Assembly (NCBI GenBank): GCA_964491455.1 | Contig: CAZBFM010000001.1 | Coordinates: 3,053 to 67,052 of the forward strand | Direction: 5' to 3' | Length of the DNA stretch: 64,000 nt | Source: an uncultured Candidatus Saccharibacteria bacterium | GTDB lineage: Bacteria; Patescibacteriota; Minisyncoccia; 2-02-FULL-40-12; GWA2-44-9 | In this document: in pieces, positions 4,923 to 52,286 of the stretch | How the letters are laid out: each line of letters opens with the position of its first letter | How positions within the stretch are numbered: position 1 is the stretch's first letter | The notes under the pieces: generated by a model | The model's database searches: none | Seen by the model: the letters and a program-made list of their open reading frames with translations, nothing else | What the model was told of the DNA's origin: nothing | Program-made: the position numbers and the translations under genes

Positions 4923-5234
4923 ATGAAGATCAAGAAAGGAGACAAAGTAATAATGTTGGGAGGCAAAGACCGATCAAAGACCGGTTCGGTGATGCGCACC
5001 GATCCATCGACGAATCGCGTGATTGTCGAAGGGCTCAACATGGTGAAGCGTCACAAGCGTGCAACGAAGCAGGGCCAGAAGGGACAGATCGTTGCCGTCG
5101 AGCGTTGGGTGGCTGCAGCAGGCGTCGCGGTGGTCAACAAAGACACCGGTAAGCCAGCACGCATCGGTTGGGAAGTGTCCAAGGATGGCTCAACGAAGAC
5201 CCGTATCGATCGCAAAACCAAAACGGTTCTCTAA
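4923..5234 (+). CDS. rplX: 50S ribosomal protein L24
   Basis: ATG at 4923 (MKIKKGDKVIMLGGKDRSKTG…, KOW motif) inside longer ORF 4785-5234. Confidence 0.85.
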   Translation: MKIKKGDKVIMLGGKDRSKTGSVMRTDPSTNRVIVEGLNMVKRHKRATKQGQKGQIVAVERWVAAAGVAVVNKDTGKPARIGWEVSKDGSTKTRIDRKTKTVL

Positions 5235-6464: not shown

Positions 6465-7013
6465 ATGTCTAAAATCGGAAAAAAACCTATCGCAATCCCA
6501 TCCGGCGTCACCGTCGAGCTCAACGACGCTTCCATCGTGGTGAAGGGTCCCAAGGGAACGCTCTCTCGCACACTCTCCAAGGGTGTTAGCGTTGAGGTCA
6601 AAGACAATATGGTGCTCGTCTCGCTTCCGATGGAGAATCCAACGCGCGATGACGGTGCTCAGTGGGGTCTCTGGCGTGCACTCATCAACAACATGCTCAT
6701 TGGTGTCAGTACGGGTTGGTCTACGGATCTTATCTTCCAGGGTGTTGGATACAAGGCCATCGTGAAGGGCAATGATCTTGAGCTCTCGCTCGGCTACAGC
6801 CACACGATTGATATCAAGGCACCAGAAGGCATCACCTTTACCGTTGAGAAGACCAACATCAAAGTATCCGGCATCGACAAAGAGCTTGTTGGCCACGTTG
6901 CATCACTCATCCGTTCCAAGCGCTTGCCCGAGCCATACAAGGGAAGTGGTATCCGCTATGCTGATGAGATCATCAAGAAGAAAGCCGGTAAGAAAGCTGC
7001 AACCGCTGCATAA
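6465..7013 (+). CDS. rplF: 50S ribosomal protein L6
   Basis: 182 aa; MSKIGKKPIAIPSGVTV…. Confidence 0.95.
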   Translation: MSKIGKKPIAIPSGVTVELNDASIVVKGPKGTLSRTLSKGVSVEVKDNMVLVSLPMENPTRDDGAQWGLWRALINNMLIGVSTGWSTDLIFQGVGYKAIVKGNDLELSLGYSHTIDIKAPEGITFTVEKTNIKVSGIDKELVGHVASLIRSKRLPEPYKGSGIRYADEIIKKKAGKKAATAA

Positions 7014-11733: not shown

Positions 11734-12138
11734 TCTACTTGAAACGGCTTCGATGGCATATCGCTGGTCAGACACGGCGTCTTTGTCTGGTGACAAAGCG
11801 CCTCCGCTCTCGTCCCGTCGGACTCCGAGATGGTCTTCCCGGCGACATGCCATCTTTGCGTAGTGGATGGAATAATAAGTGTGGCAGCGAAGCACGCCGA
11901 TGCTGTCGAAGGTAAGGGAAGCATCCCCAAGAGCCGAGTCAGACTGGAGCCGATGCTATTCCGTTGTATGAGCGAAAATTGATGATTTTCATTGAGAGCG
12001 AGTTCGGAATACATCGCGCTCTCACGCTGACGAGGCTGGGATGATGATCCTTGCAAGACAGCACGGAGGGCGAAGCAATACGGAGCATTCAATATATATG
12101 GCTGGAAAATAGCAGAACAATCGTGTACACTGTCGTCA

Positions 12139-12897
12139 ATGGTCACCCTGAAGACACCACAACAGATTGAAGCGATTCGTGCTGGCGGCAAAATCCTTGC
12201 CGCCATTTTGCGTGACCTGGCCGCGATGGCGAAGCCCGGCATGCAGACTAAGGAGTTGTCTGCACGAGCAGCACAACTTATCAAAGAGTCGGGTGCGAAA
12301 CCGAGCTTCTTGGGCTACAACAAATATCCCGACGTCATCTGTCTGTCGGTCAATCACCAGGCAGTGCACACTCCAGGGTCAGCATATGCATTACAAGACG
12401 GTGATTTGCTCAAGCTTGATTTTGGCATTGTAGTAGACGGCATGCATAGCGACTCGGCGATTACCGTACTGGTCGCGCATGATCCGAAAGCGCCAGAGCA
12501 TCAGAAGAAGCGACAGCTCATGCAGGTCACGAAAGAAGCGCTCGACAAAGGCATCGCGCAGTGTCGCGTGGGTAACACGCTTGGCGACATCGGAGCAGCA
12601 GTGCAGCAGCACGTCGAAAAAAATGGATTCACCATCGTGCGAGAGTTGGGTGGGCATGGCATCGGTACCAAGCTCCACGAAGAGCCGTGGGTTGCGAATT
12701 TTGGCAAAGCGGGGGACGGCATGAAGCTCGAAGCTGGCATGGTGCTCGCTCTTGAGCCAATCACCTGCATGGGCAAGTGGCAGATCAAAGACGGCGCCGA
12801 TGGTTTCACCTATGATATGAAAGACGGATCGCTCTCTGCTCACTTCGAACACTCAGTGGCGATCACTGAAGCTGGTCCGGATATATTGACGAGATAA
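12139..12897 (+). CDS. map: methionine aminopeptidase type I
   Basis: 252 aa; MetAP fold motifs (…DFGIVVDGMHSDSA…HGIGTKLHEEP…). Confidence 0.9.
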   Translation: MVTLKTPQQIEAIRAGGKILAAILRDLAAMAKPGMQTKELSARAAQLIKESGAKPSFLGYNKYPDVICLSVNHQAVHTPGSAYALQDGDLLKLDFGIVVDGMHSDSAITVLVAHDPKAPEHQKKRQLMQVTKEALDKGIAQCRVGNTLGDIGAAVQQHVEKNGFTIVRELGGHGIGTKLHEEPWVANFGKAGDGMKLEAGMVLALEPITCMGKWQIKDGADGFTYDMKDGSLSAHFEHSVAITEAGPDILTR

Positions 12898-13484: not shown

Positions 13485-16655
<3,171 letters not shown>

Positions 16656-16749
16656 TGTTGTCGGAGATCCCTTATAAAATCAAGTTCAGATGCAGTGATA
16701 TATGGTGCGATTTATTACCCGTAAGAAAACCGAAGCTGTTGTGGCTTTC

Positions 16750-16863
16750 GGTAAGGTGGCATTGCCACGAGTGCTCCACCCGTTCCCATCTCGAACACGG
16801 AAGTGAAATCTCGTAGGGCCCATGATAGTCGTTTACTCGGCGAAAGTAGGTCGCCGCCTTACC
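16750..16863 (+). rRNA. rrf: 5S ribosomal RNA
   Basis: ccacccgttcccatctcgaacacggaagtgaaat…; terminal helix ggtaagg/ccttacc. Confidence 0.85.
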
Positions 16864-37858: not shown

Positions 37859-38946
37859 CCGACGAGGACTTCGACGACGTCACCATCTTGGACGACGTAG
37901 TCTTTGCCGACCACACGCACGAGTCCTTTCTGGCGCGCTACACCGTAGCCGCCGCATTCGAGGAGTTGGTTGCAAGGTATGACTTCAGCGCGAATGAAGA
38001 GGCGTTCAAAGTCGGTGTGAATGGCGCGCGATGCACGGGGCATCAGATCGCCACGATGACAGGTCCACGCGCGCGTCTCGTCGGGTCCCGTGGTCAAAAA
38101 CGAAATGAGACCAAGCGTATGGTACGCCTCGCGAATGAGGCGATCCAGCCCACTCTCGGGAAGTCCGAGCTCGGTGAGAAAGCCCGCTTTTTCCTCGCGC
38201 GACATTTCTGAGAGCTCAAGTTCGAGCTTGTTGCACATAGCCACGTATTCAGAGCCATTCATCGCCGCGAGGAGCTCGGGTGATGGTTTCCAGTCCGAGG
38301 CGAGTTGAGAATCGGACACGTTGATGACGTAGATAAACTTCTTTGCCGTCAGGAGGCTCAATTCTTTGGCCAGCGCCTGTTCGTCGTCAGAAAGCTCGAG
38401 TTGACTGATGAGCGAGCCACGCTGAAGTGCGTCGGCGAGCTTCTGAAGAAGGGGGATCTGCTCACGAATAATTTTGTCGTTGCGTGCCTTGGCTTCTGAG
38501 GTGACGATACGCTTGGAGACGGTGTCTAGATCGGCGATGATGAGCTCGGCGTTGATAATGCCGATGTCCCGGATAGGATCCACGGTCTCGTGGACGTGAA
38601 TGATGTCGCCGCCATCGAATGCACGCACGACTTGTGCGATTGCATCGACTTCACGGATGTTGGCGAGGAACTTGTTTCCCAGTCCTTCTCCTTGGCTAGC
38701 ACCTTTGACGAGGCCTGCGATGTCGGTGAATTCGATGGTCGCATATATTTGCTTTGCGGATTTTGAGAGCTCAGCCAGTTTTCCGATGCGTTCATCGGGT
38801 ACCTCAACCACGCCGACATTGGGCTCAATGGTTGTGAAGGGGTAGTTTTGGATGTCGATCTGTTTGTTGGTGACAGCCTTAAAGAGTGTGGATTTGCCCA
38901 CATTGGGAAGGCCGACGATACCGATCGCTAGTTTTGTACTCGACAT
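37852..38946 (-). CDS. ychF: ribosome-binding ATPase YchF (Obg-family GTPase)
   Basis: MSSTKLAIGIVGLPNVGKSTLF…FTTIEPNVGVV…; TGS C-terminal domain. Confidence 0.9.
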   Translation of the reverse strand: MSSTKLAIGIVGLPNVGKSTLFKAVTNKQIDIQNYPFTTIEPNVGVVEVPDERIGKLAELSKSAKQIYATIEFTDIAGLVKGASQGEGLGNKFLANIREVDAIAQVVRAFDGGDIIHVHETVDPIRDIGIINAELIIADLDTVSKRIVTSEAKARNDKIIREQIPLLQKLADALQRGSLISQLELSDDEQALAKELSLLTAKKFIYVINVSDSQLASDWKPSPELLAAMNGSEYVAMCNKLELELSEMSREEKAGFLTELGLPESGLDRLIREAYHTLGLISFLTTGPDETRAWTCHRGDLMPRASRAIHTDFERLFIRAEVIPCNQLLECGGYGVARQKGLVRVVGKDYVVQDGDVVEVLVGK

Positions 38947-40558
38947 AATTTGATGGTATTGGCAGGTAACCAGATACTTCCAACCGTTCCTGGGTAGCTA
39001 CAACTTTATCTAAAACGTTTAATATTATGCCTCTTTTTGCGTCGAAACTCAAGTTGCTGAGACTTTTCGATGCTTTCATCGCGAATGCCTTCATTTGTTC
39101 ATTGCTGGGCAATCCATCAAATCCCATTTGGTTTCCATTTCGCTTTGCAGTCTCCGCCTGTGTCTCAAGAGATGCGATCTGGGCCCTGAGCGGTACGGTG
39201 TATTCCTTTAGTTGTTCCATGGTGAACAAGCCAGCCCCGTATGCCTTGCTGTAGCGCTCCTCCTGGATCTTTAACTTTTCGATTTCCTTTTGGATAACCT
39301 CTAAGTCACCAATTGATGATTTTGATTTGCCTTGTTGTGCGCGTATCCAGCGTTTAACCTGGGCCAACATTAACTCGGGAGAACTCATCAGGCTGGAGAC
39401 TTTCTTCCATACTAAATCATCAGCGATCCTGGCGTTTACCCCTTTTTCTTGGCATCGAGGTGGAAGGGGGAAGCTATAGATCCTATCACTGCACCGATAG
39501 TAGAGATGTTTTCCGTGTTGAGGCCCCTCTCCATGCCTTTTGATCCCACATGTGCAGTAAATTCTGCCACCCAGGAGATACTCATTCTTTTTATTTCGAT
39601 CACAGAGCGCGAAGTTGCTATCAAGTTGTTTACGGGCCCGTGCAAATAATTCTGGCTCAATGATTGCAGGGACGGGAATGTTGGATGCGATCCATTCTTC
39701 TTCTGGTTTTTGTTTGCGACTGCTCTTCTTCATCTTGCGGTACTTCTCTGTGTTGGTCGGATTTTCTGGAATAACAGCATACGAGCTACCCCAATGGGCC
39801 TGTCCAATATAGGCCTTGTTCCTGAGTAGAGTGCTCAGCGTAGAAGTACTCCAGACGCCACGCTTACTCTTTCGGGGACGGATGTCGAGTTCTTGTAGCC
39901 TCCTCACAACCTTTCTTATTGTGAAAGCTTCGTCGGCAATCCATTCAAAGATCATTTTGATGACGCGAGCTTCTGCTGGGTTGATTTCATAATACCCATG
40001 AGTTTTTACTCCATTCGCTTCTCGTTGGTTGGGCACGTATGTGTAGCCATAGAGGGCTTCGCTCACGAGAATATGCCCATCTCGTACTTTCCTAAGTTTT
40101 CCTAAGCGGAAGCGCTCAGAGATTTTTGCTCGTTCATATTCAGCAAACAGACCACGTACTCCGTGAAGGATTTTATCTTCAGGATTTTTGGGAGCAGTAA
40201 CCGTGACGAAAATTACCTCAATTCCTCCCTCCTTTAACTCATCCATTACCAACTCCTGATATGAGTATCGGCGGGCAAGGCGATCTGGGTCATAAATCAG
40301 GACGGCTTCCCAGAGTTTCGCTTTGGCATCCTGACGCAGTTGATCCAGGGCGGGTCGCGCAAGCACATCTCCACTCCAGCCGTCATCGGTATATTCACGG
40401 ACAATAGTATAGCCGTTCTTGGTAGCGAACTCACGCAGAGTGTTGAGTTGGATTTGGATGGTCTGCTCCTCTTCCTGTCGCGATGTCGATACTCGCGCGT
40501 AGATTGATATGAGTTTTGTCATGTTGTTTGGCATCTTCTTGGCGGAGTACTTCTTCAA
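38879..40558 (-). CDS. large serine recombinase (resolvase catalytic domain, recombinase domain, zinc ribbon, coiled coil)
   Basis: …ISIYARVSTSRQ… catalytic Ser; CTCGIKRHG…YYRC zinc ribbon; 3' end overlaps ychF start by 67 nt. Confidence 0.9.
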   Translation of the reverse strand: MKKYSAKKMPNNMTKLISIYARVSTSRQEEEQTIQIQLNTLREFATKNGYTIVREYTDDGWSGDVLARPALDQLRQDAKAKLWEAVLIYDPDRLARRYSYQELVMDELKEGGIEVIFVTVTAPKNPEDKILHGVRGLFAEYERAKISERFRLGKLRKVRDGHILVSEALYGYTYVPNQREANGVKTHGYYEINPAEARVIKMIFEWIADEAFTIRKVVRRLQELDIRPRKSKRGVWSTSTLSTLLRNKAYIGQAHWGSSYAVIPENPTNTEKYRKMKKSSRKQKPEEEWIASNIPVPAIIEPELFARARKQLDSNFALCDRNKKNEYLLGGRIYCTCGIKRHGEGPQHGKHLYYRCSDRIYSFPLPPRCQEKGVNARIADDLVWKKVSSLMSSPELMLAQVKRWIRAQQGKSKSSIGDLEVIQKEIEKLKIQEERYSKAYGAGLFTMEQLKEYTVPLRAQIASLETQAETAKRNGNQMGFDGLPSNEQMKAFAMKASKSLSNLSFDAKRGIILNVLDKVVATQERLEVSGYLPIPSNYVEYKTSDRYRRPSQCGQIHTL

Positions 40559-40723: not shown

Positions 40724-41335
40724 TTATACTCTTTTTCGCTTATTAAGTCGCGAGAACATCCCATAACTCAGGGTTGCGCGCCGATAAAGCGTCTCTAATT
40801 TCCTCTGCTTTTTTGTTGGTCGGCCAGCATAGTAGGGGCGTTTGATCTGTTGGCTCAGTTTTTCGATCTTGTCTTCGATGCGGATTGCGTCGAAAAGGGG
40901 AGCGTATGAGAAGTTGCGGTTTTCATTTCGCGAGTTGTAGGTCAGGTTGTAACAATGGCGACAGGCAAAATAGTCACCGTCTTTGTACAAGACTCCCACT
41001 CGTCGGCCGCAGTACACGCCACCTTTGTACCAAGGGCATTGGAACCAATATCGCTTCCCTCCATAACGGCACGGAGTTGTAACGAGAGGGATCTGGTAGT
41101 CAAACTCCTTTTTCTCGCCATCCGAGTCGGTTTGTGTGTAGTGGAAGCGTGCATGGCTTTGTCCTTGCATGGTTGCAACAACGATGCCTATGCTGCTTTT
41201 ATCACCCCATGCGCTTGTCCACTCGATCGTTCCAGATCTCCAGCCACAAAAATACTGGTGCCTCCTGAGAAAGCTCACCGATACTTTTTTTAGGCCATCT
41301 GCCTCTGTTTTTCCTCCATAACTCCATCGTCCCAT
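40724..41335 (-). CDS. hypothetical Cys-rich protein (putative zinc finger), island-borne
   Basis: 203 aa; multiple CxxC pairs (CRYGGKRYWFQCPW…CRHCYN). Confidence 0.45.
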   Translation of the reverse strand: MGRWSYGGKTEADGLKKVSVSFLRRHQYFCGWRSGTIEWTSAWGDKSSIGIVVATMQGQSHARFHYTQTDSDGEKKEFDYQIPLVTTPCRYGGKRYWFQCPWYKGGVYCGRRVGVLYKDGDYFACRHCYNLTYNSRNENRNFSYAPLFDAIRIEDKIEKLSQQIKRPYYAGRPTKKQRKLETLYRRATLSYGMFSRLNKRKRV

Positions 41336-41467: not shown

Positions 41468-43672
41468 TCAGAAGGGCAGTTCGGTGCCCTGATCTTGCCC
41501 TGTTTCCTCGTCATCCTGTTGGGTCACGTTAGTAGTTACCCCACCCTGCGTATCACTATATTCAGTGCCATCCGAAAGCTGCTTTGGGGAGGATGGGTAA
41601 ATCAACATCTTGCGTTTATCCGACGGGTCCTGCTCCTGGATAATGAGGCCCGCCGTTTCCAGCATTGGCAGGATTTGTTGGCGAAGTTGGTTGGAGTTCA
41701 GTATTCGGCCATACACTGTTAAATGCTTATCCAGCACCTCTTGTCGCGTAAGACCAGCTTTGCTCGCCAGGAGCGTGTAATCGGTGCCCTGGCCCGCGTT
41801 TTTGGCGTTCCAGAGGGGTACGATGACCTCGGTATAGAGGTTATAGATATAGGGTGGCAGGTTGAGTTCTTGGCTAACTGCGATTTTCTCCCAGAGTTTA
41901 AATGCGGCATCGATGTCAGCATCGTTGGCGGTGATCGTTGAGCCGCTACGCTCTCGCCACCACACATTGAGAAGTGCGAACGATTTGACGATCGACAGGA
42001 GGCGCTTGATGTCTCGCTGGTGGCGTGGCTTGAGTGTCTTGTTGTCGCGCAAATACTTCTCTTGGATGCGGTCTTTGGATGCGATGTTGATGTCTTTGAT
42101 CTTCTCCAGCTTGATAGCGTGGATGCGCTTTTTTAGGAGCATGCGATCGGGATTTTCCTCGAGCCAACTCACGAAGTCTTTGCTATTAGCTTCTTTACTG
42201 ATGATCGCACTGATGCTTTGCTGGATTTTCTCTTGATTGACTTCGGGCGAGAGAAGCAGAAAGCGGGTCGCCTCTTGTTCATCAATTTTCAGGCCTGCAG
42301 TGCAGAAAATAACGGAGGGGAAGCCACGCAAAAGAATATTCTTCGTTTTGAGACCAGCTTTCTGGGACTTATCAGTAATCTTGAGGGTGATCTCCTTTTT
42401 GTCGTGCGAAAGGAGGGGGCGAAGACGGGCCAAGAGTTCGTTGTGGGGCATGTCCAAGAAGATGAGGATCTTGTTGGATAGATCGACGAGGTACTGGTTC
42501 TTTTCTTTATCGTACTGCCCCGCATCGTGGAAGAAGGCGGTGGGGCTACAGTAAGCGATTTCCATGACATCATCCTGCGGGAAGAGACGAGCGATTTCAG
42601 TGGGAATATAACTCTTACCCGTTGAGCTTGGTGCGTTATAACTAATATTAAATTGGCTGTTTTCGGTGTACGCCGAGAGCTCACAAAGGAATGTGGCGAG
42701 CTTGTTTTCGGCATCGTATTTGATGGTCAGCCCCAGTGTCTCGATGAGTTGATCGGCAGTAAGCGGTTGGAACTGAGAGGTATCAATCCGTTCTGGGTAA
42801 GGCTTAGCATATTTGTCGAACAGGTCTTCGCCAATACCATTGAGGCTTGTGAAGTAATCGGTGATGTCGCCATGCTCTCCGACTTCCGTTGGCAGCGTGA
42901 TGAGGTGCGTTTCACGTCCACCATTGTCCACCATTTCGGCGACTCGTGACGCCCCTTTTCGGCCCGCTTCGTCATTATCGAAGCAAACGTAAATAGCTTT
43001 GATTGTTTGATTTTTAATCAGTTTTTCAACCCATTCATCTTTGAAGGTTCCAGCGCCGTGGGTTGAAGTAATGGCGGGGATACCATGAGTCACCAAAAGC
43101 AGACGATCCAGTTCTCCTTCGCAGATTACCAGGCGATCGTGAGCTTCTTCGAGTGTAGTCCAGTCATATAGCTGAGCCTGAGCACCCTTGGGATAGGTGA
43201 TCTTGTCATCGCCCATGACTGGATCTTGGCGCAGTTTGAAAAACGAGTAATTGCCAAAGGCATCCTTGATAGGGATAGTAATCCAGGATTTGCGGTAATA
43301 ATGACCATAACCGATCTTATATGTATCGATGATGGCATCAGAAAGACCGCGCTTGTGAAGGTACTCGCGAATGTGTGGAGGAAGAGCTCGGTGGCAATTT
43401 TCTACAGTTTCGGCATTGAAGACTTGTATCTTGCGCGGGCGCGTTAAGGTGTCTCCAAAATGCTTGGCCAGAGTGACCAGATTACCGCGTTCACCGCATT
43501 TCTTGCAGTCGTATTGGCCTGTTTCAGCATTGAAATACAGGTGGGCCTCGTTGCGTCGGCTGTCTTCATCGCATCCATTGAATACACAGTGAGTGATGAG
43601 CTCATTGCCGTGCTCGCGAAATTCAATGCCTTTCTGTGTCAGATAATCACGGATAGTAATAGTATGTGTCAT
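41468..43672 (-). CDS. DNA primase (CHC2 zinc finger plus TOPRIM) fused to P-loop NTPase (D5/SF3-like), mobile-element replication protein
   Basis: N-terminal HCxFxxC…CxxCG zinc finger; TOPRIM ICEGELD…CFDNDEAG; Walker A APSSTGKS; C-terminal wHTH. Confidence 0.75.
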   Translation of the reverse strand: MTHTITIRDYLTQKGIEFREHGNELITHCVFNGCDEDSRRNEAHLYFNAETGQYDCKKCGERGNLVTLAKHFGDTLTRPRKIQVFNAETVENCHRALPPHIREYLHKRGLSDAIIDTYKIGYGHYYRKSWITIPIKDAFGNYSFFKLRQDPVMGDDKITYPKGAQAQLYDWTTLEEAHDRLVICEGELDRLLLVTHGIPAITSTHGAGTFKDEWVEKLIKNQTIKAIYVCFDNDEAGRKGASRVAEMVDNGGRETHLITLPTEVGEHGDITDYFTSLNGIGEDLFDKYAKPYPERIDTSQFQPLTADQLIETLGLTIKYDAENKLATFLCELSAYTENSQFNISYNAPSSTGKSYIPTEIARLFPQDDVMEIAYCSPTAFFHDAGQYDKEKNQYLVDLSNKILIFLDMPHNELLARLRPLLSHDKKEITLKITDKSQKAGLKTKNILLRGFPSVIFCTAGLKIDEQEATRFLLLSPEVNQEKIQQSISAIISKEANSKDFVSWLEENPDRMLLKKRIHAIKLEKIKDINIASKDRIQEKYLRDNKTLKPRHQRDIKRLLSIVKSFALLNVWWRERSGSTITANDADIDAAFKLWEKIAVSQELNLPPYIYNLYTEVIVPLWNAKNAGQGTDYTLLASKAGLTRQEVLDKHLTVYGRILNSNQLRQQILPMLETAGLIIQEQDPSDKRKMLIYPSSPKQLSDGTEYSDTQGGVTTNVTQQDDEETGQDQGTELPF

Positions 43673-43684
43673 GTTGGGTAATAG

Positions 43685-43972
43685 TTATTCTGAGTACAGC
43701 TGATTTTTGAGAGCCTTAATGGTGTCGAAGAAGGCCCGTGCCTTTACGGTAAGTTGATCCAGGAAGTATTGATTTGCACGATCTTCAATTCCATCCTGTC
43801 TTTTGAAGATAAACAGGGCCTTTCGGGGGTCGTCTTTGTTCAGCGATAGTAGTTCGAAGCCACTGCACGCGAGGGCAGCGCTAACGCCGAGGTCATAGGT
43901 CGTGAAGACCAGTGATGGGTCATCTAACGGTATATACTGATATTCCTTGGGCCGACTTTTATTTTTGGGCAT
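43685..43972 (-). CDS. hypothetical small protein (island-borne)
   Basis: 95 aa ORF directly upstream of primase on same strand. Confidence 0.4.
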   Translation of the reverse strand: MPKNKSRPKEYQYIPLDDPSLVFTTYDLGVSAALACSGFELLSLNKDDPRKALFIFKRQDGIEDRANQYFLDQLTVKARAFFDTIKALKNQLYSE

Positions 43973-44119
43973 TGTAATGGGGTGATATTTTAATTGATGA
44001 GAGATCGACCATGACCCTCGCTATATGTGCTGAAAGGTCAGCGCAAGAAAAAACCTTGTCGTAAAACAAGGCTTTTCTCGGCTTGATTGGCCAAATAAAC
44101 CTCCTGATTTTTCAGGAGG

Positions 44120-46405
44120 CTATTCCTCTGAGTCGTCTATGGCGAGCTGATTCTCGTTGAGCCTACCTCCCTGTCGCCAAATGTCATTTTGTCGCAAACC
44201 TGGTACTGGTAATAATTTGAATTTAGGATCGTAATAATCGCTTCTTGCGTGGAACGGATCATCGTCCGTTTTGAAGATAGAGCGCATGCTTTTTACAAGT
44301 AATCGTTTAATCTGGTATACATTTCCCAATTTTAGGGAGATGTTTGATCTTGCAGCAACCATACGCGTCATTTGCTGCGCTGTAGCGGTGTGAATATCGG
44401 TTGCGGCGAGCGCAGATAGTGCCTCTAGGAAATTCCATTCACGAGTTGGTTTTTGCTGTTTTTTACCCCTGGAGAACCCTAGCTGTACGTAATCTGGGGC
44501 GGCGATGTATTTCCCGTCGTAATAGATCTCAATCTCTTTGGCTCCTTCTTTAAATTTAATTTCAACTTTCTCGAATTTAACTACCTCGGGGAAGACGAGG
44601 TCAATTGAGTGTCGCTTTTTTACCGCGCGCCTGATGCCGAATATTTCTGGCGGAGATGCTATGGGTATGAGCGCGTTGCCAGGTACAATGTAGTAGTCTT
44701 GCGACTCTGGTTTGGTCGTTTTCTGAGCACGCGCTTCCGCTTTATCTTGAGGTTTCCGCGGTTGGCGTTTGAGTAAGTATGGTGAGAGATTTCCCTTAAT
44801 CTCATCTCGTTGGATGTGTACATCAGTTCTTCGTTGGTGCAGATAATATCCAATGAGGTTCATTTCTGGTGACGTTGCATTGAGTGCATTTTCGATATGG
44901 CCCTGGATGACAGGACTCCTCAAGCCATCAAATGTGTTGAGCAAGAAGAAAGAGTAAAGGGACTTTTCTACTCCACTGCTCGCTTCTTTCATTGATCGCT
45001 TAACGAGCTCAATGTCTATGTCCTGTTCTCGAATGGCTTTATGGTATAGGGCAACAACCTTGAAGATTGTTGTTTCCTTCTCACTCAGGATACGGTCGAT
45101 TTCCTGGTCTAGCTCACCAATGATGATGCTTTTGTTTGACGCTAGCAGTTTGAGTATCCAGAATTTCGACCAGTCGGTGACCTCACTGTTATTGTACGCT
45201 TCCCAAAGTGCGCTATCGATGGTTATGGCATCGAGTGGGTCGCCAAAAATATCGAGCATTACCATAGAGTCGGCAATGTATTGAATGATTGGCACTGTCA
45301 GTGAGGGTCGGATCGGGATGATCTTGATAAGGTCAAGGATCAAATTAAGGTTGAAGATTACGCTGGCCTTCAGATAGTACTTAAGACCGCGAATTTCTAG
45401 CTTCTCAACCTTTTCACCGCTGATTATTGCACCGATGATTCGGGGGATTGTGGCGGTGATACGCGCAAAATCGTCCTCGGGTATTTCGGGGGTGCTGTAG
45501 TCATAATCGGAGCTGATGCGCATGGCCTCAATCGCTTCAGTATCCTGAAGCTCGGTAACTTTTGTTTTCTCGTTGAGATTTAGGTTGTGACCTCGAAGAA
45601 AGCGTACTATTTTTTCTGTCGCTTTGAGCACATCTTCTTTGCTCCTGCCCATCAGCACAAGATCGTCCACGTATCGTAGATAGCGGAAGTTTTTCCCAGC
45701 CAGTTCTTCTTCGATATATTCATCAAGAGACGCAAGATATGCATTAGCGAGAACCGCTGATGGGCCAGGGCCTTGGGGCAATCCTTTTGGTAGGTCAGGA
45801 AACTCGGTCCATGTTCTCAGTTGTGTGTCGAGTATGGATAGAATTTTTTCATCCTTAATGCCAAAGTCGTTTTTGATTTTCTCCATTAACTTTCCGATTG
45901 GGATATGCTCGTAATATTGCTGAACATCAACCTCCAACTTCCAGACCAGCCCCTTTTCAAATGCTTTCTTTTGCCCTTCGCAGAACTTATCCCAATCATT
46001 GAAATATGGGGCGATAAAGGCTGGTGTTTCTGCATTATCATGAACTCGATTACCAAAACAGCTTTTGTCGGAGAGCTGATTGTCGATTTTGTATCCAAGG
46101 ATTTCTTGGTTGAAGATGGCTTGGAATACGATTCGATCGATCATCGACATTACGTAGACGGGCCGAAGGGCTAGATTGTCTTTAGGTATGTAAACGAAGA
46201 ACCCCTTTTCGGGGGCATAATTACCGTCTCGGATCTGTTTCTCTAGGGCAACAAAGAATTCGCCACCAAGGGCATCAATGGCAGTAGTGGCAGGATGATT
46301 AATTGGGTTTACGGAAAGTGTCGAGTGTGAGAGCTCGTGTTGAACGTGTGTGTATGCCAGCTTTAGGTTTTCTCGCGATGAGAACCGCTCAAAAAGAGTC
46401 GCCAT
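44120..46405 (-). CDS. reverse transcriptase, Abi/UG (defence-associated RT)-like, with about 450-aa helical C-terminal extension
   Basis: RT motifs: …LRPVYVMSMIDRIVFQA…; GLPQGPGPSAVLANAYL; YVDD (RYVDDLVLMG); 761 aa; no intron/retron context; neighbours are R-M and nuclease genes. Confidence 0.8.
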   Translation of the reverse strand: MATLFERFSSRENLKLAYTHVQHELSHSTLSVNPINHPATTAIDALGGEFFVALEKQIRDGNYAPEKGFFVYIPKDNLALRPVYVMSMIDRIVFQAIFNQEILGYKIDNQLSDKSCFGNRVHDNAETPAFIAPYFNDWDKFCEGQKKAFEKGLVWKLEVDVQQYYEHIPIGKLMEKIKNDFGIKDEKILSILDTQLRTWTEFPDLPKGLPQGPGPSAVLANAYLASLDEYIEEELAGKNFRYLRYVDDLVLMGRSKEDVLKATEKIVRFLRGHNLNLNEKTKVTELQDTEAIEAMRISSDYDYSTPEIPEDDFARITATIPRIIGAIISGEKVEKLEIRGLKYYLKASVIFNLNLILDLIKIIPIRPSLTVPIIQYIADSMVMLDIFGDPLDAITIDSALWEAYNNSEVTDWSKFWILKLLASNKSIIIGELDQEIDRILSEKETTIFKVVALYHKAIREQDIDIELVKRSMKEASSGVEKSLYSFFLLNTFDGLRSPVIQGHIENALNATSPEMNLIGYYLHQRRTDVHIQRDEIKGNLSPYLLKRQPRKPQDKAEARAQKTTKPESQDYYIVPGNALIPIASPPEIFGIRRAVKKRHSIDLVFPEVVKFEKVEIKFKEGAKEIEIYYDGKYIAAPDYVQLGFSRGKKQQKPTREWNFLEALSALAATDIHTATAQQMTRMVAARSNISLKLGNVYQIKRLLVKSMRSIFKTDDDPFHARSDYYDPKFKLLPVPGLRQNDIWRQGGRLNENQLAIDDSEE

Positions 46406-46700
46406 AGTAATAGTAATGTTGGTGGCATCCTACTCCCCAAGAGGGCTTATATCAAGGTATCGATGAGGCTTCCAATTAACCATCAATAGTGGTAATTTAT
46501 GCTTAACAATTTATCGCCTAACCCTTGTGAGCTTGTTGTCACAAGATATGGCGAAAAAATCCCCATCCCTGATACTGAACCCCTCGTTCAGCGCACTCAG
46601 GGATGGGTCATGCCCGAAAGGGTATGTGAGTCGCAAGACTCAACGCTAGCGGGGGGCTTTGTGTTTCCCGTTTGCGACATAGGTTTTACCCATCCCTACT

Positions 46701-47588
46701 ATGTCGAAAAAACTTCATCGGTTTGCCATTGCCGACCTTTTTGCTGGCATTGGCGGTTTCCATCTTGCCTTCCATCGTCTTGGTGCGGAGTGTGTTTTTG
46801 CAAGTGAATGGGATGAACACGCTCGAAAAACATACGAGCACAACTTTAAGAAAATCAGTCCCGACCTCTTTGAGAGTGGGAACTTTGCGGGAGATATAAC
46901 AAAAGTTTCTGCCAGCGCAGTACCCGATTTCGATATTCTCACAGGTGGTTTTCCGTGTCAGCCGTTTAGCCAGGCTGGCTTCAAGAAGGGATTTCAAGAT
47001 GCACGAGGGACTTTATTTTTTGATATTGCTCGCATCATTAGAGCGAAGCGACCCGTAGCGTACTTTATTGAGAATGTTCGGCATCTCCAGAAGCATGATG
47101 ATGGTAAGACGTTCGCTGCAATAAAAAGAATTATCGAGGACGACCTCGGTTACTCTTTCCATGCAAAAATCGTGAAGGCATCAGATTTCGGTTTGCCCCA
47201 GCATCGTCCGCGTCTTTATATGGTTGGTTTCAGGGATAAGGACGTTCCGTTCAAGTTTCCTGATCCCGTGCCATTAAAGATGAGTATGTCGGATGTGTTT
47301 GGAGGAGAGTGCGCGCGGAATGTTGGTTTCACTCTTCGCCTGGGAGGGCGTGGCTCTGGGCTCAACGATAGGAGGAATTGGGATACCTACCTTGTTGATG
47401 GAAAACAAAGAAGGCTGTCGCCTTTGGAAGGCAAGAAGATGATGGGCTTTCCGAATAGTTTTCATTTTCCTGTCACTGAAACCCAGGCGATGCGTCAGTT
47501 GGGTAATAGCGTTGCTGTGAATGCAATACGGGCAACCGCTCGAGAGATTATTAGTTCGCTTAATCATTACTATGGCAAAGGGAAATAG
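46701..47588 (+). CDS. DNA (cytosine-5)-methyltransferase
   Basis: motif I DLFAGIGGF, motif IV GGFPCQPFSQAG, motif VI ENV, QLGNSV. Confidence 0.9.
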   Translation: MSKKLHRFAIADLFAGIGGFHLAFHRLGAECVFASEWDEHARKTYEHNFKKISPDLFESGNFAGDITKVSASAVPDFDILTGGFPCQPFSQAGFKKGFQDARGTLFFDIARIIRAKRPVAYFIENVRHLQKHDDGKTFAAIKRIIEDDLGYSFHAKIVKASDFGLPQHRPRLYMVGFRDKDVPFKFPDPVPLKMSMSDVFGGECARNVGFTLRLGGRGSGLNDRRNWDTYLVDGKQRRLSPLEGKKMMGFPNSFHFPVTETQAMRQLGNSVAVNAIRATAREIISSLNHYYGKGK

Positions 47589-48720: not shown

Positions 48721-49467
48721 ATGTTTCAGGCAAAGACCCAACGAATATCAGAGCTGGCTGCAAAGTATCCAGATCGCATTATGGAAATGGAGTCGATTTT
48801 GAGCGCGTCGGCCAATGTCTATGTAGATTATGCGAATGTTCGTCCCTGGTCTGAGCGCCTCAAGTGGCACGTTGAACCGAAGCGGCTCAAGCAATTTTTA
48901 GACTCCTTCTCAAATTTTAAGTCCATCCGCTTTTATTCTGGTGAATTAAAGGGAGATGTTGACTCCGAAGCTTCTACTCAGGAGTTAAAGCGGATTTTCA
49001 ATTCTGGTCTCGTTACCAAGCCCGTTAAGATTATGCGACTCCCAATCAATGTTTCGAGCATTCCCAAGAATGATCCTGCTATCCTAAAGGATTTTATTCG
49101 TAAGCCGCTACTACAGAAATTAACGGTTCAAACCGTCGAATTATTAAATGGAGAGTTGGAGAAACTTAACCAGCAGGGTACGGCTTTCCTTGAGGATAGG
49201 AAGTGTAACTTCGACGTTGAGATAGGGACTGACATTCTTTTGGATCTTGAAAGGGGAAGTGCTGATGTCTTTGTGCTCTGGAGTGGAGATAGTGACTTTG
49301 CGGATCCTATTAGTAAGTTGCTTGCTGCGGGGAAAAAGGTCTACCTATTTGCTACTGCTCGCAGGATTGCTAGCGAGCTTAATACCCTTACGACTAGTGG
49401 ATTGGTAATTTTTGATATTCAGAAGATAAGGGACTTTATATGCTGGGCTCGTGAAATAACCCCGTAA
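48721..49467 (+). CDS. NYN/LabA-like domain protein (putative nuclease)
   Basis: …VYVDYANV…DVEIGTD…VLWSGDSDF… Asp pattern typical of NYN/PIN-like domain. Confidence 0.6.
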   Translation: MFQAKTQRISELAAKYPDRIMEMESILSASANVYVDYANVRPWSERLKWHVEPKRLKQFLDSFSNFKSIRFYSGELKGDVDSEASTQELKRIFNSGLVTKPVKIMRLPINVSSIPKNDPAILKDFIRKPLLQKLTVQTVELLNGELEKLNQQGTAFLEDRKCNFDVEIGTDILLDLERGSADVFVLWSGDSDFADPISKLLAAGKKVYLFATARRIASELNTLTTSGLVIFDIQKIRDFICWAREITP

Positions 49468-49834: not shown

Positions 49835-50425
49835 ATGGCTACTCCGTCTGATGTCAGCGTGGGCCTGGCCCACGAACTCACCATCACCACCACGAAGGCG
49901 GGATGGGAACCCAAGGACTTCGCAACCCTCGCCCACAGCGAGGACAAGGCCCGCGAGATCCTCGCGTACCTGCGCGGTCTCTCCGAGATCAAGCAGGTCA
50001 CGCACGCCATCGACTGCGATGCCGACCCCTTCCTGCCCAACGGCTGGCGGGTGGAAGAGCACCGCAAGGACGGCGTGATCGTCTGGGACCTCACCAAGGT
50101 CTCCCTTTATCTCTCCAAGGGGCAGAAGGGCGACAAGCGTATCGTCGGCAACGACCTCCGCAAGGAGCTCGCCAAGAAGCCCACGATGAACGCCAACGTG
50201 CTGGACTACCTGCTCAAGAACCCCCACCTCATTCCCGAGGACTGGAAGAAGGACGACCGTGGCAACACGCGCTACATCTTCTTCTGGGGGACCATCTACC
50301 GCGGCTCCGGCGACGGCCTGTACGTCCGCTATCTGTGCTGGGACGGCGGTGCGTGGAGCTGGGACGTCGGCTGGTTGGGCCGCGTCTTCGTCGGCGACCG
50401 CCCCGCTGCGTTGCGTGCAAGTTAG
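49835..50425 (+). CDS. DGR target protein 1 (196 aa, no signal peptide, C-terminal variable region); high-GC gene
   Basis: start at ATG 49835 (AGGAG 11 nt upstream; aligns with paralog N-terminus MAAKSAFSIVGLAHKL); VR at 3' end; conserved motifs IDCDADPF, MNANVLDYLLKNPHLIPEDWK, TRYIFFWGTIY. Confidence 0.75.
   Translation: MATPSDVSVGLAHELTITTTKAGWEPKDFATLAHSEDKAREILAYLRGLSEIKQVTHAIDCDADPFLPNGWRVEEHRKDGVIVWDLTKVSLYLSKGQKGDKRIVGNDLRKELAKKPTMNANVLDYLLKNPHLIPEDWKKDDRGNTRYIFFWGTIYRGSGDGLYVRYLCWDGGAWSWDVGWLGRVFVGDRPAALRAS
50298..50420 (+). repeat. DGR variable region (VR1)
   Basis: 123-nt homolog of TR; about 23 mismatches, 22 at positions where TR has A; 3'-terminal 20 nt identical to TR. Confidence 0.75.
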
Positions 50426-50487
50426 GTCCTTGGACCTGGTTCCTTAGGCCCCGTTGGCCTCTGAACCTTAGTCCTTCGACCCCGTTC

Positions 50488-50528
50488 GATGCCCTGTGTG
50501 CGAAAGCGCATGGGGCATCTTTTTTTGT
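50488..50528 (+). terminator. hairpin (gatgccc…ggggcatc) plus T7 downstream of VR1
   Basis: inverted repeat plus T-run. Confidence 0.5.
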
Positions 50529-50762
50529 GCTAAAATTAAATTGGAATTAGGCGAATATGCGGGCGACTACGGTTTCCTGCTGCCGAACCCAGTATCCATA
50601 CAACCCAGAATATCTCCGACTACGGTTTGAGGTAGCGTGGTGTATGTAGAAACTTCAAAAAATGAAGATACTTGGTAGGGGGTGCTATAGCATTGCGATG
50701 CCGAATACGATACAGCCCTGAGAGTACTCGAAGGGCAGTGGCACGGAAGGCACTCACTACAC

Positions 50763-50885
50763 ACCGCAACTCCGACGACAACCTGTACGTCCGCTATCTG
50801 TACTGGAACGACGGTGCGTGGAACTGGAACTACAACTGGTTGGACAACGACTTCAACGGCAACAACCCCGCTGCGTTGCGTGCAA
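50763..50885 (+). repeat. DGR template region (TR), adenine-rich (many AAC codons)
   Basis: aligns to VR1 with A-specific mismatches; located upstream of RT. Confidence 0.75.
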
Positions 50886-50891
50886 CTCTCC

Positions 50892-51287
50892 TCATTTCTC
50901 TCCCTTCGCGGGAGAGTTTTGTTTTTGCAGTTGGCCGTTCCATCCACCCATCATTTTGCCGATCTCATCCATCTTTAGAGATAGCGCGGCATACTTCTGG
51001 CTGTTCAATGATTTCGTCTCCCAGAGTACCAAGAGTAGTACTTTGAGCGTGTCTGTCTTTCGTATGGCGAGCCGAACATACGGGAGTTTCTCGTTGCGTG
51101 GAAGGAAGCTGGCAGTTGCCAGAGCTTCGATCAGTTCAATAAACAGGGCATCTATTCGTAGTCCAAGTGAGTGTCGGTGTGTCTTTGGGAGTGTTTGGAG
51201 ATAGCTATACCAAAGAATATAGGCACTTTTTGTGCTTTGAAGTAGTGGTATCAGCGGGGGGGGGGTATTATAGGAAGAATGGCTCAT
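50892..51287 (-). CDS. avd: Avd-like four-helix-bundle protein (accessory variability determinant), opposite strand
   Basis: …LPKTHRHSLGLRIDALFIELIEALA…LAIRKTDTLKVLLLVLWETKSL…EIGKMMGGW resembles four-helix-bundle/Avd family; start could be at 51431 (179 aa). Confidence 0.5.
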   Translation of the reverse strand: MSHSSYNTPPPLIPLLQSTKSAYILWYSYLQTLPKTHRHSLGLRIDALFIELIEALATASFLPRNEKLPYVRLAIRKTDTLKVLLLVLWETKSLNSQKYAALSLKMDEIGKMMGGWNGQLQKQNSPAKGEK

Positions 51288-52286
51288 AAGCAGTTCAAAT
51301 ATCCATACCAGAGTATCATTTCTTTGGAAAATCTCCTCCAGGCGTGGAGGGAGTTTCTTGTTGGTAAGCGGAGCCGAAAAGACGTTCAAGATTTTGAGCG
51401 TAATTTCATGGACAATGTTATTGCGCTGCACAGCGACTTAAGAGACAAGACATACTCTCATTCGGCGTATGAAAGTTTCAACATTTCCGACCCTAAGCCA
51501 CGGCACATTCATAAGGCGACCGTGCGAGATCGGTTATTGCACCACGCACTCTACCGAAATCTCTATCCATTCTTTGCGAGAGCGTTTATTTCGGACTCCT
51601 ATTCCTGTCAGCTCAATAAGGGGACGCATCGAGCGATGGATCGTTTTCGATCGTTTGAGCGTCAGGTATCCCGCAACCACACTCGCACAGCATGGGTGCT
51701 CAAGTGTGATGTGCGAAAGTTCTTTGCTTCTATAGACCAGGCAGTTCTTTTGGGGATTTTAAAGCAGTACATTCCAGATCAAGATACTCTCTGGCTGCTC
51801 TCGCAGATCATTGGAAGCTTTTCTTCGACCAAACCTGGTTTGGGGTTACCTCTGGGAAATCTCACCTCTCAACTCCTGGTGAATATCTATATGAACGAGC
51901 TGGATCAATTCGTGAAACACTCCCTGGGGGCTAAGCACTATATCCGCTATGCTGATGATTTTGTCGTTATGTCCCACGACAGGTCTTGGCTCGAAGAGTT
52001 GTTGCCTAGAATAGCTGACTTTTTAAATGAAAGGCTGTGCCTGGAACTTCATCCCAATAAAGTTTCTATTCAAGCTCTTGCCTCGGGAGTCGATTTTCTC
52101 GGTTGGGTGCACTTCTCTGACCATAGGGTGTTGAGAACGGTAGCAAAAAGGAGGATGTTTAGAGGTCTTGGGTCGCGAGGAGGCAATTCTCAAACCGTGC
52201 AGGCGTATTTGGGACTCATAAGCCATGGAAATACCAAAAAGCTCGAGCAACGAGTGCGCCAGCTTTCTTCCGAATATAGTGAGTAG
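51279..52286 (+). CDS. DGR reverse transcriptase
   Basis: 335 aa; RT motifs incl. LPLGNLTSQLLVNIYMNELD (DGR-type (I/L)GxxxSQ) and IRYADDFVV (YADD). Confidence 0.9.
   Translation: MAHKQFKYPYQSIISLENLLQAWREFLVGKRSRKDVQDFERNFMDNVIALHSDLRDKTYSHSAYESFNISDPKPRHIHKATVRDRLLHHALYRNLYPFFARAFISDSYSCQLNKGTHRAMDRFRSFERQVSRNHTRTAWVLKCDVRKFFASIDQAVLLGILKQYIPDQDTLWLLSQIIGSFSSTKPGLGLPLGNLTSQLLVNIYMNELDQFVKHSLGAKHYIRYADDFVVMSHDRSWLEELLPRIADFLNERLCLELHPNKVSIQALASGVDFLGWVHFSDHRVLRTVAKRRMFRGLGSRGGNSQTVQAYLGLISHGNTKKLEQRVRQLSSEYSE

Follow-up and report, generated by a model that had tools for sequence, protein, structure and literature searches.

A class-1 UG/Abi-type reverse transcriptase with a predicted winged-helix tail in the conserved backbone of small integrative elements from CPR bacteria

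Reverse transcriptases (RTs) of the UG/Abi (DRT) lineage are read as defence proteins largely through their nearness to other defence genes. Class-1 DRTs are described as untemplated in one report (PMC13174585), and DRT4 is an untemplated polymerase (PMC12783706). DRT4 (UG15), DRT6, AbiK and Abi-P2 are single-gene defence systems of variable hotspots rather than fixed backbone genes, and their polypeptide chains end after a repeat domain, without a DNA-binding tail. In UG19, the RT is followed by an alpha-helical repeat and then by an extra C-terminal domain with very distant similarity to HEPN, which is either fused to the RT or encoded separately as 'cluster 1465' (Mestre et al. 2022; PMC9226505). 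In that description, UG19 is not placed in the backbone of an element with a serine recombinase, and neither palindromic sites nor CPR hosts are mentioned for it. The class-1 RT UG32 is reportedly fused to a helix-turn-helix (HTH) and provides a precedent for the combination of an RT with a DNA-binding domain (PMC9226505). The mobile elements of CPR bacteria and their defence are poorly known.

The RT described here is encoded at 44120..46405 on the minus strand of the window, the 64,000-nucleotide stretch of DNA that was analysed. The ORF listing and translation, which runs from ATG to stop, bear out the 761-residue length and the exact coordinates given in a first-pass annotation of the sequence. 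Relatives that are 42-62% identical over the full length are found in about 55 clusters of metagenomic proteins, and the ORF is therefore a real gene rather than a chance reading frame. The RT domain comprises residues 1-300 (45506..46405), of which residues 73-284 match Pfam RVT_1 (E 1e-14). The YVDD and QGxxxS motifs previously placed in the first 300 or so residues are indeed there and are intact: YVDD (245-248) is part of R-Y-V-D-D at 244-248, and P-Q-G-P-G-P-S occupies residues 210-216. R244, Y245 and D247 do not vary among 41 family sequences, in which the conservation of D160 and D248 is 90% or higher. Two tyrosines, Y63 and Y72, are also conserved and are candidate priming residues only. 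Both catalytic aspartate motifs have been lost in one relative, P0054, so selection may not act on polymerisation in every member of the family.

The remainder of the protein, residues 300-761, has no match in Pfam, NCBIfam or PDB sequences, in line with the earlier statement that it lacks endonuclease, maturase and DGR features. It had been described as a long helical extension. Residues about 310-545 (44771..45478) form an alpha-helical repeat domain of 13 consecutive helices with high pLDDT in the AlphaFold model (mean pLDDT 81.9 for the 761-residue protein). A disordered linker (residues 550-600) leads from there to a predicted C-terminal winged-helix (wHTH) domain (residues about 605-740; 44186..44593).

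In a PDB profile search, group II intron RT domains come out on top (E 5e-20), with matches confined to residues 2-290, and the RT domain superposes on 5hhl/5irg with a TM of 0.66 (Foldseek). The RT domain and the helical repeat together can be superimposed onto DRT4 (9vdo; 497 columns, TM 0.59) and also onto DRT6, AbiK, Abi-P2 and AbiA. The best overall superposition of this two-domain body is given by the class-1 enzymes DRT4, DRT6, AbiK and Abi-P2 (target-normalised TM 0.41-0.59 over about 450-570 columns), with an identity of only 13-16%. The first-pass proposal of an Abi or UG/DRT-class RT is upheld by this fold and by the profile search. The best PADLOC profile is RT_UG19 (3.5e-52, 176 bits), which aligns residues 5-632 with profile positions 3-488 of 562; UG21 scores lower (149 bits). 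RT_UG19 matches all 41 of the 41 relatives (best E 1e-58) and has the lowest best E-value among the families, but because the PADLOC library has no curated cutoff, UG19 is a nearest-group assignment. The match of the RT_UG32 profile is confined to residues 71-297, within the RT domain. The protein is a member of the UG/Abi (DRT) lineage, class 1, with UG19 as the nearest profile, and the UG19 match is moderate and stops short of the profile end. A class-2, ncRNA-templated DRT was rejected, as Drt2 scored 44.6 against 390 and Drt3a 71.7 against 200.

The fold search predicts that the C-terminal domain is an OmpR/CadC-like winged helix and not HEPN. A HEPN or nitrilase fold had been raised as a candidate for this region; no HEPN, nuclease or nitrilase was detected in it by Pfam, PADLOC, NCBIfam or the fold search, and structure prediction gives an alpha-repeat and a winged helix instead. 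The domain does not match Pfam Trans_reg_C, and searches of PDB sequences and of BFVD with it were likewise empty. It lacks detectable sequence similarity to the effector domains of OmpR, PhoB, CadC and ToxR and has a conserved tail, YYxPKFxILP...LR, that has no counterpart in them. The order of domains is that of UG19, and the extra domain can again be encoded separately, in parallel to the 'UG19-large/small' split (PMC9226505), although its predicted fold here is OmpR-like and not HEPN. The domain is fused to the RT or separate, and it is also present without an RT at the same position of the element. The N-terminal part ahead of it is variable: it can be missing, about 130-160 residues long, about 460 residues long, or the RT and alpha-helical repeat (RT-alphaRep).

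The gene lies in a mobile island, as had been noted earlier. The island is an element of about 11 kb, inserted at the 5' end of ychF in the genome of a CPR bacterium (Paceibacteria/Yanofskybacteria-like). It starts with a serine recombinase near 38.9 kb and reaches to about 49.7 kb. The large serine recombinase (38879..40558, minus strand; Pfam Resolvase, Recombinase and Zn_ribbon_recom) abuts ychF: its 3' end overlaps the ychF start and constitutes the left end of the island. Its homologs in two other loci, L014 and L039, are 57-64% identical and also adjoin ychF. A long direct repeat that would mark the att sites was not found at the island ends. On the minus strand, the RT gene is followed by the gene of a DUF5659 protein (43685..43972, 95 residues; Pfam PF18903), which has 29 related ORFs in synteny and whose profile has no match in the PDB. 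Next comes a Toprim (DnaG-type) primase-like protein (41468..43672, 734 residues; Pfam Toprim_2) that matches the PHROG DNA primase/helicase family and DnaG structures in the PDB and is 62-75% identical between loci. A conserved backbone protein of 203 residues (40724..41335, minus strand), whose homologs occupy the same position in 11 loci, has no family match in Pfam, PADLOC, NCBIfam or PHROG. The cargo is on the plus strand and consists of a C5 DNA methylase (46701-47588), an HpaII endonuclease (ending at 48651) and a NYN-domain protein (48721-49467), all assigned by Pfam; the divergent restriction-modification (R-M) system of the first-pass annotation is real. Conserved blocks upstream of the RT were considered as RNAs but proved to be small HTH genes. 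Those on the cargo strand are excisionase/HTH_17-like, and those on the strand of the RT are Xre/C-protein-like.

The order of RT, DUF5659, Toprim primase (or an alternative), small genes and large serine recombinase is found in about 21 distinct RT-bearing loci and holds even for RTs that are only 26-30% identical. The pairwise identities of the RT and the primase co-vary (Pearson 0.93), to levels as low as about 28%, while recombinase and cargo have been exchanged. R-M systems adjoin the RT in nearly every locus, yet the cargo genes of the window are not conserved in the relatives, which have type I or type III R-M in their place; over all loci, R-M systems of types I, II and III are represented. 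The exchangeable cargo of the window comprises the HpaII R-M system, which is not a partner of the RT, and the NYN gene, whereas the RT belongs to the conserved backbone of a small CPR integrative element. The earlier label 'stand-alone' is apt in that the gene has its own terminators, but it does not fit a fixed backbone gene that co-diverges with the primase and is followed by DUF5659, primase and recombinase. These loci define a family of small integrative elements with R-M cargo that had not been described before. With an integrase, a primase, a variable R-M slot and no capsid or conjugation genes, the layout may resemble that of P4-like and PICI-like phage satellites and small integrative elements. 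It differs from them in its large serine recombinase, its CPR hosts and the conserved RT-wHTH gene; furthermore, neither a helper phage nor a packaging signal was identified here. Single-protein locus searches of genome and viral collections returned no loci, and a viral scan with the family alignment returned no matches, so nothing in these searches identifies the element as a known phage. No relevant literature was found on DUF5659 or on an RT/serine-recombinase element of CPR bacteria.

Two palindromes follow the end of the RT gene, both read on the minus strand. Site A is a hairpin (44100..44119) located directly after the RT stop codon, with the apex CTGAAAAATCAG at 44104-44115 and a T-run behind it. 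It is followed by a second, terminator-like hairpin with T6 (44054..44071), which is variable in sequence, and by site B, the palindrome CTGACCTTTCAG (44030..44041), situated 74 nt after site A and ahead of DUF5659. This spacing corresponds to seven helical turns. At the other end of the gene, a consensus scan gives a weak promoter-like site, TTGATA-17-TAGGAT (46427..46455, minus strand). Across 27 loci the apex of site A is invariant and its outer stem covaries. The pair of sites, with the common form CTGA-N4-TCAG, is found behind every wHTH-bearing gene in about 30 distinct loci, 73-76 nt apart, and is also kept in wHTH loci that lack the RT or DUF5659. In site B, GCTGA-N4-TCAGC is invariant wherever the wHTH domain is present. 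In the most divergent wHTH group, the two sites have changed together, and both are CTGAACTTTCAG. Conversely, L026 and L028 have kept the RT and DUF5659 and lack both the wHTH domain and the A/B sites; the corresponding position contains iteron-like TACGAAA direct repeats with a period of 10 nt.

Because of this strict co-occurrence, the CTGA-N4-TCAG palindromes are probably the binding sites of the wHTH domain. Counting against this, OmpR-type domains usually bind direct repeats and not inverted ones such as these. In addition, site A is an ordinary terminator hairpin as well, and DUF5659 or a host factor could be the palindrome binder instead. RNA pairing between the two sites was rejected, as two changes in site B of the window are not compensated in site A.

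The reading that we favour, though at no better than even chances, is that the protein is a class-1 untemplated, protein-primed polymerase, tethered by its wHTH domain at the regulatory region of the element. The polymerase active site is conserved, and the RT gene is a separate transcription unit that ends in two terminator-like hairpins. By analogy with AbiK, Abi-P2, DRT4 and DRT7, the enzyme would carry out untemplated, tyrosine-primed synthesis of ssDNA without an ncRNA, thereby sharing the mechanism of DRT4, DRT6, AbiK and Abi-P2 (PMC12783706). To judge by their co-occurrence, the wHTH domain would bind the pair of sites that follows its own stop codon. Sites A and B appear to overlap the likely promoter of the DUF5659-primase-recombinase operon, so that a wHTH domain bound there would hold the polymerase at the control region of replication and integration and couple it to that region. 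More speculatively, the output would respond to a phage or a competitor, either as abortive-infection defence from which the element profits or by switching the element's own operon. The mechanism is extrapolated from relatives with about 13-16% identity, and the templated group II intron RTs, to which the RT domain is nearest by sequence, count against untemplated synthesis. A defence role would follow from family membership; given the conserved position, a role in the element's own biology has at least as much in its favour. The RT, its predicted DNA-binding domain and the apparent adjacent sites suggest either a new wiring of an untemplated polymerase to the control region of an element or, as a caution, that 'defence association' can follow from nothing more than the architecture of an element. 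They also give the UG19-like group concrete parts that can be tested: a protein, its sites and an operon.

A possible but doubtful alternative is a self-contained, single-gene DRT/Abi defence system riding in the defence-cargo slot of the island, in which case the C-terminal domain would be an effector or a phage sensor with no role in the element. The class-1 UG/Abi affinity is consistent with it, as are the promoter-like site and terminators that belong to the RT itself and the R-M genes next to nearly every copy. Furthermore, all characterised class-1 members are antiphage (PMC9226505, PMC12783706), and a defence role for UG19 was predicted by Mestre et al. from inspection of its loci (PMC9226505). 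However, the neighbouring R-M systems change while the RT stays with the primase and the recombinase, and its co-divergence with the primase can be followed to about 28% identity. The C-terminal domain persists alone in RT-less elements, at the same position and with the same flanking palindromes, and a catalytically dead variant has been retained. A nuclease, HEPN or membrane effector is absent.

The same invariance can be taken further. In what we regard as an unlikely reading, the protein serves the life cycle of the element: the wHTH domain would serve the DUF5659-primase module as its master regulator or as an initiator that binds the origin. RT-alphaRep would then be an addition that supplies input or priming, as a phage sensor or by starting protein-primed DNA synthesis at the palindromes, and defence would not be the main role. 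What stays invariant is the unit made up of wHTH gene, A/B sites and downstream operon, with an interchangeable N-terminal part; site B has an operator-like position in the promoter of the primase operon, the A-B spacing is a whole number of helical turns (seven for 74 nt), the RT and the primase co-diverge, and the iteron-like TACGAAA repeats with their 10-nt period take the same place where RTs have a different C-terminus. However, the backbone can do without the RT, as the RT-less elements demonstrate, there is no known precedent for a UG/Abi RT in a replication system, the two hairpins with T-runs resemble ordinary terminators, and an origin has no direct evidence.

A related and still more speculative proposal, which we think rather improbable, makes RT-alphaRep the sensing or input module of a master wHTH regulator, and the whole an RT-based induction switch of a satellite-like CPR element. 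Constant synthesis of protein-linked ssDNA would report phage infection, by analogy with DRT4, which does so via a phage ssDNA-binding protein, and the DUF5659-primase-recombinase operon would be toggled through the CTGA-N4-TCAG operators. In a variant of this proposal, the protein would prime replication of the element at the palindromes. The LOOT RNA described below would be a separate RNA, encoded by the element and controlling the R-M genes of the cargo.

A cognate ncRNA had been suggested upstream of the RT on its own strand. This suggestion did not hold: the 109 nt in question (46406-46514) are unstructured (z +1.1) and have no Rfam match, the upstream spacer measures only 74-112 nt in several loci, and a conserved ncRNA co-oriented with the RT was not found across related loci. 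A structured RNA is instead encoded on the plus strand. It is a LOOT RNA (Rfam RF03000; 46515..46642), divergent from the RT and located 59 nt upstream of the methylase start, which scores 77.8 bits against a gathering score of 46.4 over the whole model (positions 1-121). It folds into the three-hairpin structure of the family (MFE -60.4 kcal/mol, z -8.9). In an alignment of five element-borne copies, compensatory changes are found at 25 of 43 pairs, and 87% of cells are paired compared to 32-42% in slid controls. The LOOT motif was reportedly described by Weinberg et al. in 2017; no function, organism or context was found for it in the literature.

At the Rfam gathering threshold, only L010 among 22 loci contains LOOT; with a home-made covariance model and with Rfam scans at relaxed settings, the only further loci were L026, L035 and L036. 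Of the about 21 loci that have an RT, 4 thus contain LOOT (the window, L010, L026 and L035), whereas in L036 it is about 6 kb from the wHTH gene, beside a bPH_2 gene and a recombinase. Two matches to the LOOT pattern in viral contigs were dismissed as chance matches inside coding regions. It is very improbable that LOOT is the cognate ncRNA of the RT, acting as a template or scaffold as in the class-2 systems DRT2 and DRT9 or in retrons. LOOT is highly structured with strong covariation, its function is so far unassigned in the literature found, and four copies lie in the RT-proximal spacer, but it is on the strand opposite to the RT, it is missing from about 17 of the 21 RT-bearing loci, including some with the 74-112 nt spacer, and the L036 copy is remote. 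Furthermore, it is always directly 5' of a cargo gene and on the strand of that gene, and the class-1 architecture speaks against templated synthesis. The orphan LOOT RNA has thus gained a genomic home: it resides in CPR integrative elements, on the 5' side of their cargo genes.

As reported in the first-pass annotation, the RT is not adjacent to an intron, retron or CRISPR: Rfam scans of the vicinity were negative for RNAs of group II introns and retrons and for CRISPR repeats, and repeat scans around the RT found no arrays. An identity as a group II intron maturase-RT, retron RT or DGR RT has a negligible probability, because in spite of an RT domain closest in sequence to group II intron RTs and a DGR in the neighborhood, PF08388, intron RNA domains, the maturase X domain and an endonuclease are absent, TIGR04416 scores 99.7 bits against a cutoff of 300, the retron models reach 25-50 bits against cutoffs of 235-600 with the RT-strand upstream region unstructured and free of Rfam matches, and the template and variable repeats with their adenine-specific differences, like the Avd protein, belong to another RT. 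That DGR, 5 kb away, is a genuine one, with its own 335-residue RT (51279-52286), a template repeat and a variable repeat.

The open reading frame of 761 codons at 44120-46405 of the minus strand, which starts with ATG, encodes a reverse transcriptase (RT). In a search of 5.8 billion proteins about 55 clusters align with the RT over its full length at 42-62% identity. Judging from these clusters and from the conserved catalytic residues, this is clearly a real gene. The Pfam domain RVT_1 covers residues 73-284. Both motifs named in the first-pass annotation are found in the translation, RYVDD at residues 244-248 and PQGPGPS at 210-216. In the family alignment three residues never vary (R244, Y245 and D247), and two more, D160 and D248, show conservation of at least 90%. 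One relative, P0054, is encoded on a 2.6-kb contig outside the window and retains the full architecture with changed catalytic residues: the Asp of motif A is replaced by Gly, PQG by PQE and YADD by YADR. P0054 appears to be an inactive RT kept together with its winged helix.

A profile search against the UG/DRT and Abi RT families, suggested at the first pass, gave RT_UG19 as the top defence-system profile (3.5e-52, residues 5-632); UG21 and other class-1 groups came next. All of the aligned relatives (41/41) likewise match RT_UG19 best. UG19, a group described by bioinformatics alone (PMC9226505), is the nearest named group by profile match, and the family may be 'UG19-large' or a sister group. 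No NCBIfam model comes near its cutoff for this protein, as the scores show: group II intron RT (99.7 against a cutoff of 300), Drt3a (71.7 against 200) and retron RT (25-50 against 235-600).

The AlphaFold model, calculated from a 41-sequence alignment with a mean pLDDT of 81.9, consists of an RT domain (residues 1-300), thirteen consecutive helices (310-545), a disordered linker (550-600) and a compact α/β domain (605-740). The tightest fold match of the RT part found by Foldseek in the PDB is with group II intron RT domains (TM 0.66, 23% identity). Over the protein as a whole, the class-1 UG/Abi enzymes DRT4/UG15 (497 columns, TM 0.59), DRT6, AbiK, Abi-P2 and AbiA superpose at the greatest length, so the protein has the class-1 'RT plus α-repeat' body described by Mestre et al. 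(PMC9226505).

Residues beyond 300 have no match among Pfam, NCBIfam or PDB sequences. Structure prediction, also called for at the first pass, points to a winged helix (wHTH) as the C-terminal domain and not to the HEPN domain that had been raised as a possibility. The wHTH is modular and is encoded in several forms among the related loci. It stands alone in L029 (150 aa), follows unrelated N-terminal regions of about 130-160 aa in L030, L033, L034, L035 and L039, and follows a region of about 460 aa in L032. A profile search of a library of 50%-identity representatives found the full RT-repeat-wHTH architecture in only about 5 of them, RT and repeat with a different or strongly diverged C-terminus in about 40, and stand-alone wHTH proteins in at least 35.

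The gene is part of an integrative element. The G+C content falls to 0.45-0.49 between positions 40 and 50 kb of the window. On the RT strand (minus), 3' of the RT gene, Pfam identifies a DUF5659 protein, a Toprim primase-like protein, a 203-aa unknown protein and a large serine recombinase adjoining ychF. The divergent genes encode a C5 methylase and an HpaII-type endonuclease, so that the R-M system reported earlier is indeed present, and an NYN protein. ORFs were clustered from 5 genome loci, 35 metagenome loci and 6 further contigs. A single order is invariant among them: the RT, or in its place a gene with the wHTH only, comes first, and after it DUF5659, in many cases a small ORF, the Toprim primase (an alternative protein in some loci), between one and three small conserved proteins (the 203-aa protein among them), the large serine recombinase, and a tRNA gene or ychF. 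The whole element, about 11.6 kb long, lies among housekeeping genes in the 281-kb contig behind locus L048.

Pairwise identities of the RT and the primase co-vary (Pearson 0.93), and the recombinase is exchanged. The RT and primase identities are 87% and 89% between L011 and L021, 77% and 87% between L012 and L013, and about 28% and 31% between L028 and all others. The genes upstream of the RT, usually divergent, vary by locus: type III Mod/Res, type I HsdM/S/R, type II HpaII in the window, and occasionally others. Because these genes vary while the RT order and its co-divergence with the primase are constant, the R-M system is cargo and the RT belongs to the conserved core of the element. 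The description of the RT as 'stand-alone' thus holds for its own transcription signals only; the gene is a core gene in a fixed order with DUF5659, primase and serine recombinase.

The recombinases of L014 and L039 are 57-64% identical to that of the window and are likewise inserted at ychF. In these three independent elements the recombinase gene ends in or beside the 5' end of ychF (window 38879-38946, L014 13866-13909, L039 13494-13555), so that the ychF start is a conserved attachment site for recombinases of this lineage. Elements of other lineages adjoin tRNA genes.

Alignment of the RT-to-DUF5659 spacers revealed a pair of palindromic sites in the same arrangement in every aligned locus. 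Site A (window 44100-44119) is a hairpin immediately after the stop codon, with an invariant apex, CTGA-A4/5-TCAG, and a T-run after it. Its outer stem covaries, one pair, for example, occurring as GC 7, UA 6 and AU 4 times. A second hairpin (44054-44071) is variable in sequence and has its own T-run. Site B (44030-44041), GCTGA-N4-TCAGC, precedes a CATATAGGGTGAGGG-like stretch and overlaps the likely promoter of the DUF5659-primase operon. The distance from A to B, start to start, is 73-76 nt in nearly all loci.

The pair is found behind every wHTH-carrying gene, in about 30 distinct loci, including the RT-less L029, L032, L033, L034, L035, L036 and L039. Both sites are altered together to CTGAACTTTCAG, with a spacing of 84-85 nt, in L035-L037, which form the most divergent wHTH group. 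From this co-occurrence, which is not proof, we infer that the C-terminal wHTH domain binds sites A and B. The sites could instead be bound by DUF5659 or a host factor, and site A also looks like a normal terminator. The pair is present in L030 and L039, which have no DUF5659, and absent from L026 and L028, which keep the RT and DUF5659 and are missing the wHTH domain. RNA pairing between the sites is unlikely because the changes in site B of the window are uncompensated in site A. Between the RT stop codon and DUF5659, L026 (~6675-6705) and L028 (~12110-12140) contain three TACGAAA direct repeats with a 10-nt period, which are iteron-like and occupy the place of the CTGA-N4-TCAG pair.

The cognate ncRNA proposed upstream of the RT was not borne out: on the RT strand the folding of the 109 nt 5' of the start is not better than that of shuffled sequence (z +1.1), and this stretch has no Rfam match on that strand. 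The plus strand carries a LOOT RNA (RF03000) at 46515-46642 (77.8 bits against a gathering score of 46.4), with an MFE of -60.4 kcal/mol (z -8.9) and GNRA-type loops on that strand only. Four more copies occur in related loci (L010 635-761, L026 3768-3894, L035 149-264, L036 16695-16809). The five copies together show compensatory changes at 25 of the 43 base pairs; paired cells make up 87%, compared to 32-42% in slid controls.

LOOT is an unlikely template or partner of the RT: about 17 of the 21 RT-bearing loci have no copy, some 6 kb separate it from the wHTH gene in L036 and, where the downstream gene is identifiable, it immediately precedes a cargo gene, on the strand of that gene. That gene is the C5 methylase in the window, type III Mod in L010 and L026, and a bPH_2 gene in L036. 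Several RT loci without LOOT have just 74-112 nt upstream of the RT, and many loci have small HTH genes in the RT-cargo spacer in its place. Since it is missing from most RT loci, lies 5' of cargo genes and shares its spacer position with HTH genes, LOOT is an accessory RNA of the element family. It is probably a leader or regulator of cargo expression, and may serve the R-M systems in this way; a literature search found nothing on LOOT function. In L013, L020, L005, L014, L044 and L046 the HTH gene upstream of the RT is Xre/C-protein-like, encodes 73 aa and runs in the same direction as the RT. An excisionase/HTH_17-like gene is on the cargo strand in L010, L032 and L009, and in L016 it is joined to the N-terminal end of type III Mod. 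In L009 a tRNA gene (5080-5150) lies inside the element between type III Mod and the RT, in the spacer that holds LOOT elsewhere.

As far as literature searches show, the winged-helix identity of the extra domain and its stand-alone paralogues, the palindromic site pair, the CPR element family with swappable R-M cargo and the placement of LOOT in these elements are all undescribed.

The intact polymerase site, class-1 architecture, DNA-binding-type C-terminal domain, backbone synteny, primase co-divergence and domain-linked invariant palindromes have direct support. AbiK, Abi-P2, DRT4 and DRT7 are reported to make untemplated, tyrosine-primed ssDNA (PMC12783706; PMC13174585). By family analogy, the RT most likely does the same and would need no ncRNA. 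The co-occurrence of the winged helix with the sites suggests that this domain would bring the enzyme to the control region of the replication/integration operon. The outcome might be abortive-infection defence that benefits the element, which the family affiliation favours. Control or priming of the element's own replication carries substantial weight as well, because RT-less elements keep the wHTH gene and its sites, P0054 is catalytically dead and the gene position is constant.

The NYN protein (window 48721-49467) accompanies the R-M cargo. A 29%-identical homologue is found inside the type I R-M operon of a related element (L030/L031 2146-2868), which suggests that it is an R-M-associated accessory nuclease. 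The host is a CPR bacterium, whose RecA shares 86% identity with proteins labelled Candidatus Yanofskybacteria and Paceibacterota. At window 13486-16862 its 23S rRNA gene, followed by 5S rRNA, probably contains an insertion because it spans 3171 nt compared to 2925 nt in the model; no 16S gene lies near these genes in the window. Such an rRNA layout is typical of CPR genomes.

A complete diversity-generating retroelement (DGR) adjoins the island at 49835-52286. The target gene (196 aa) has the variable repeat (50298-50420) at its 3' end. The template repeat lies at 50763-50885 and has an A at every mismatched position, in many cases within an AAC codon. The DGR RT (335 aa) is encoded at 51279-52286 of the plus strand, and a bAvd-like ORF (50892-51431) is called on the opposite strand, an unusual orientation.
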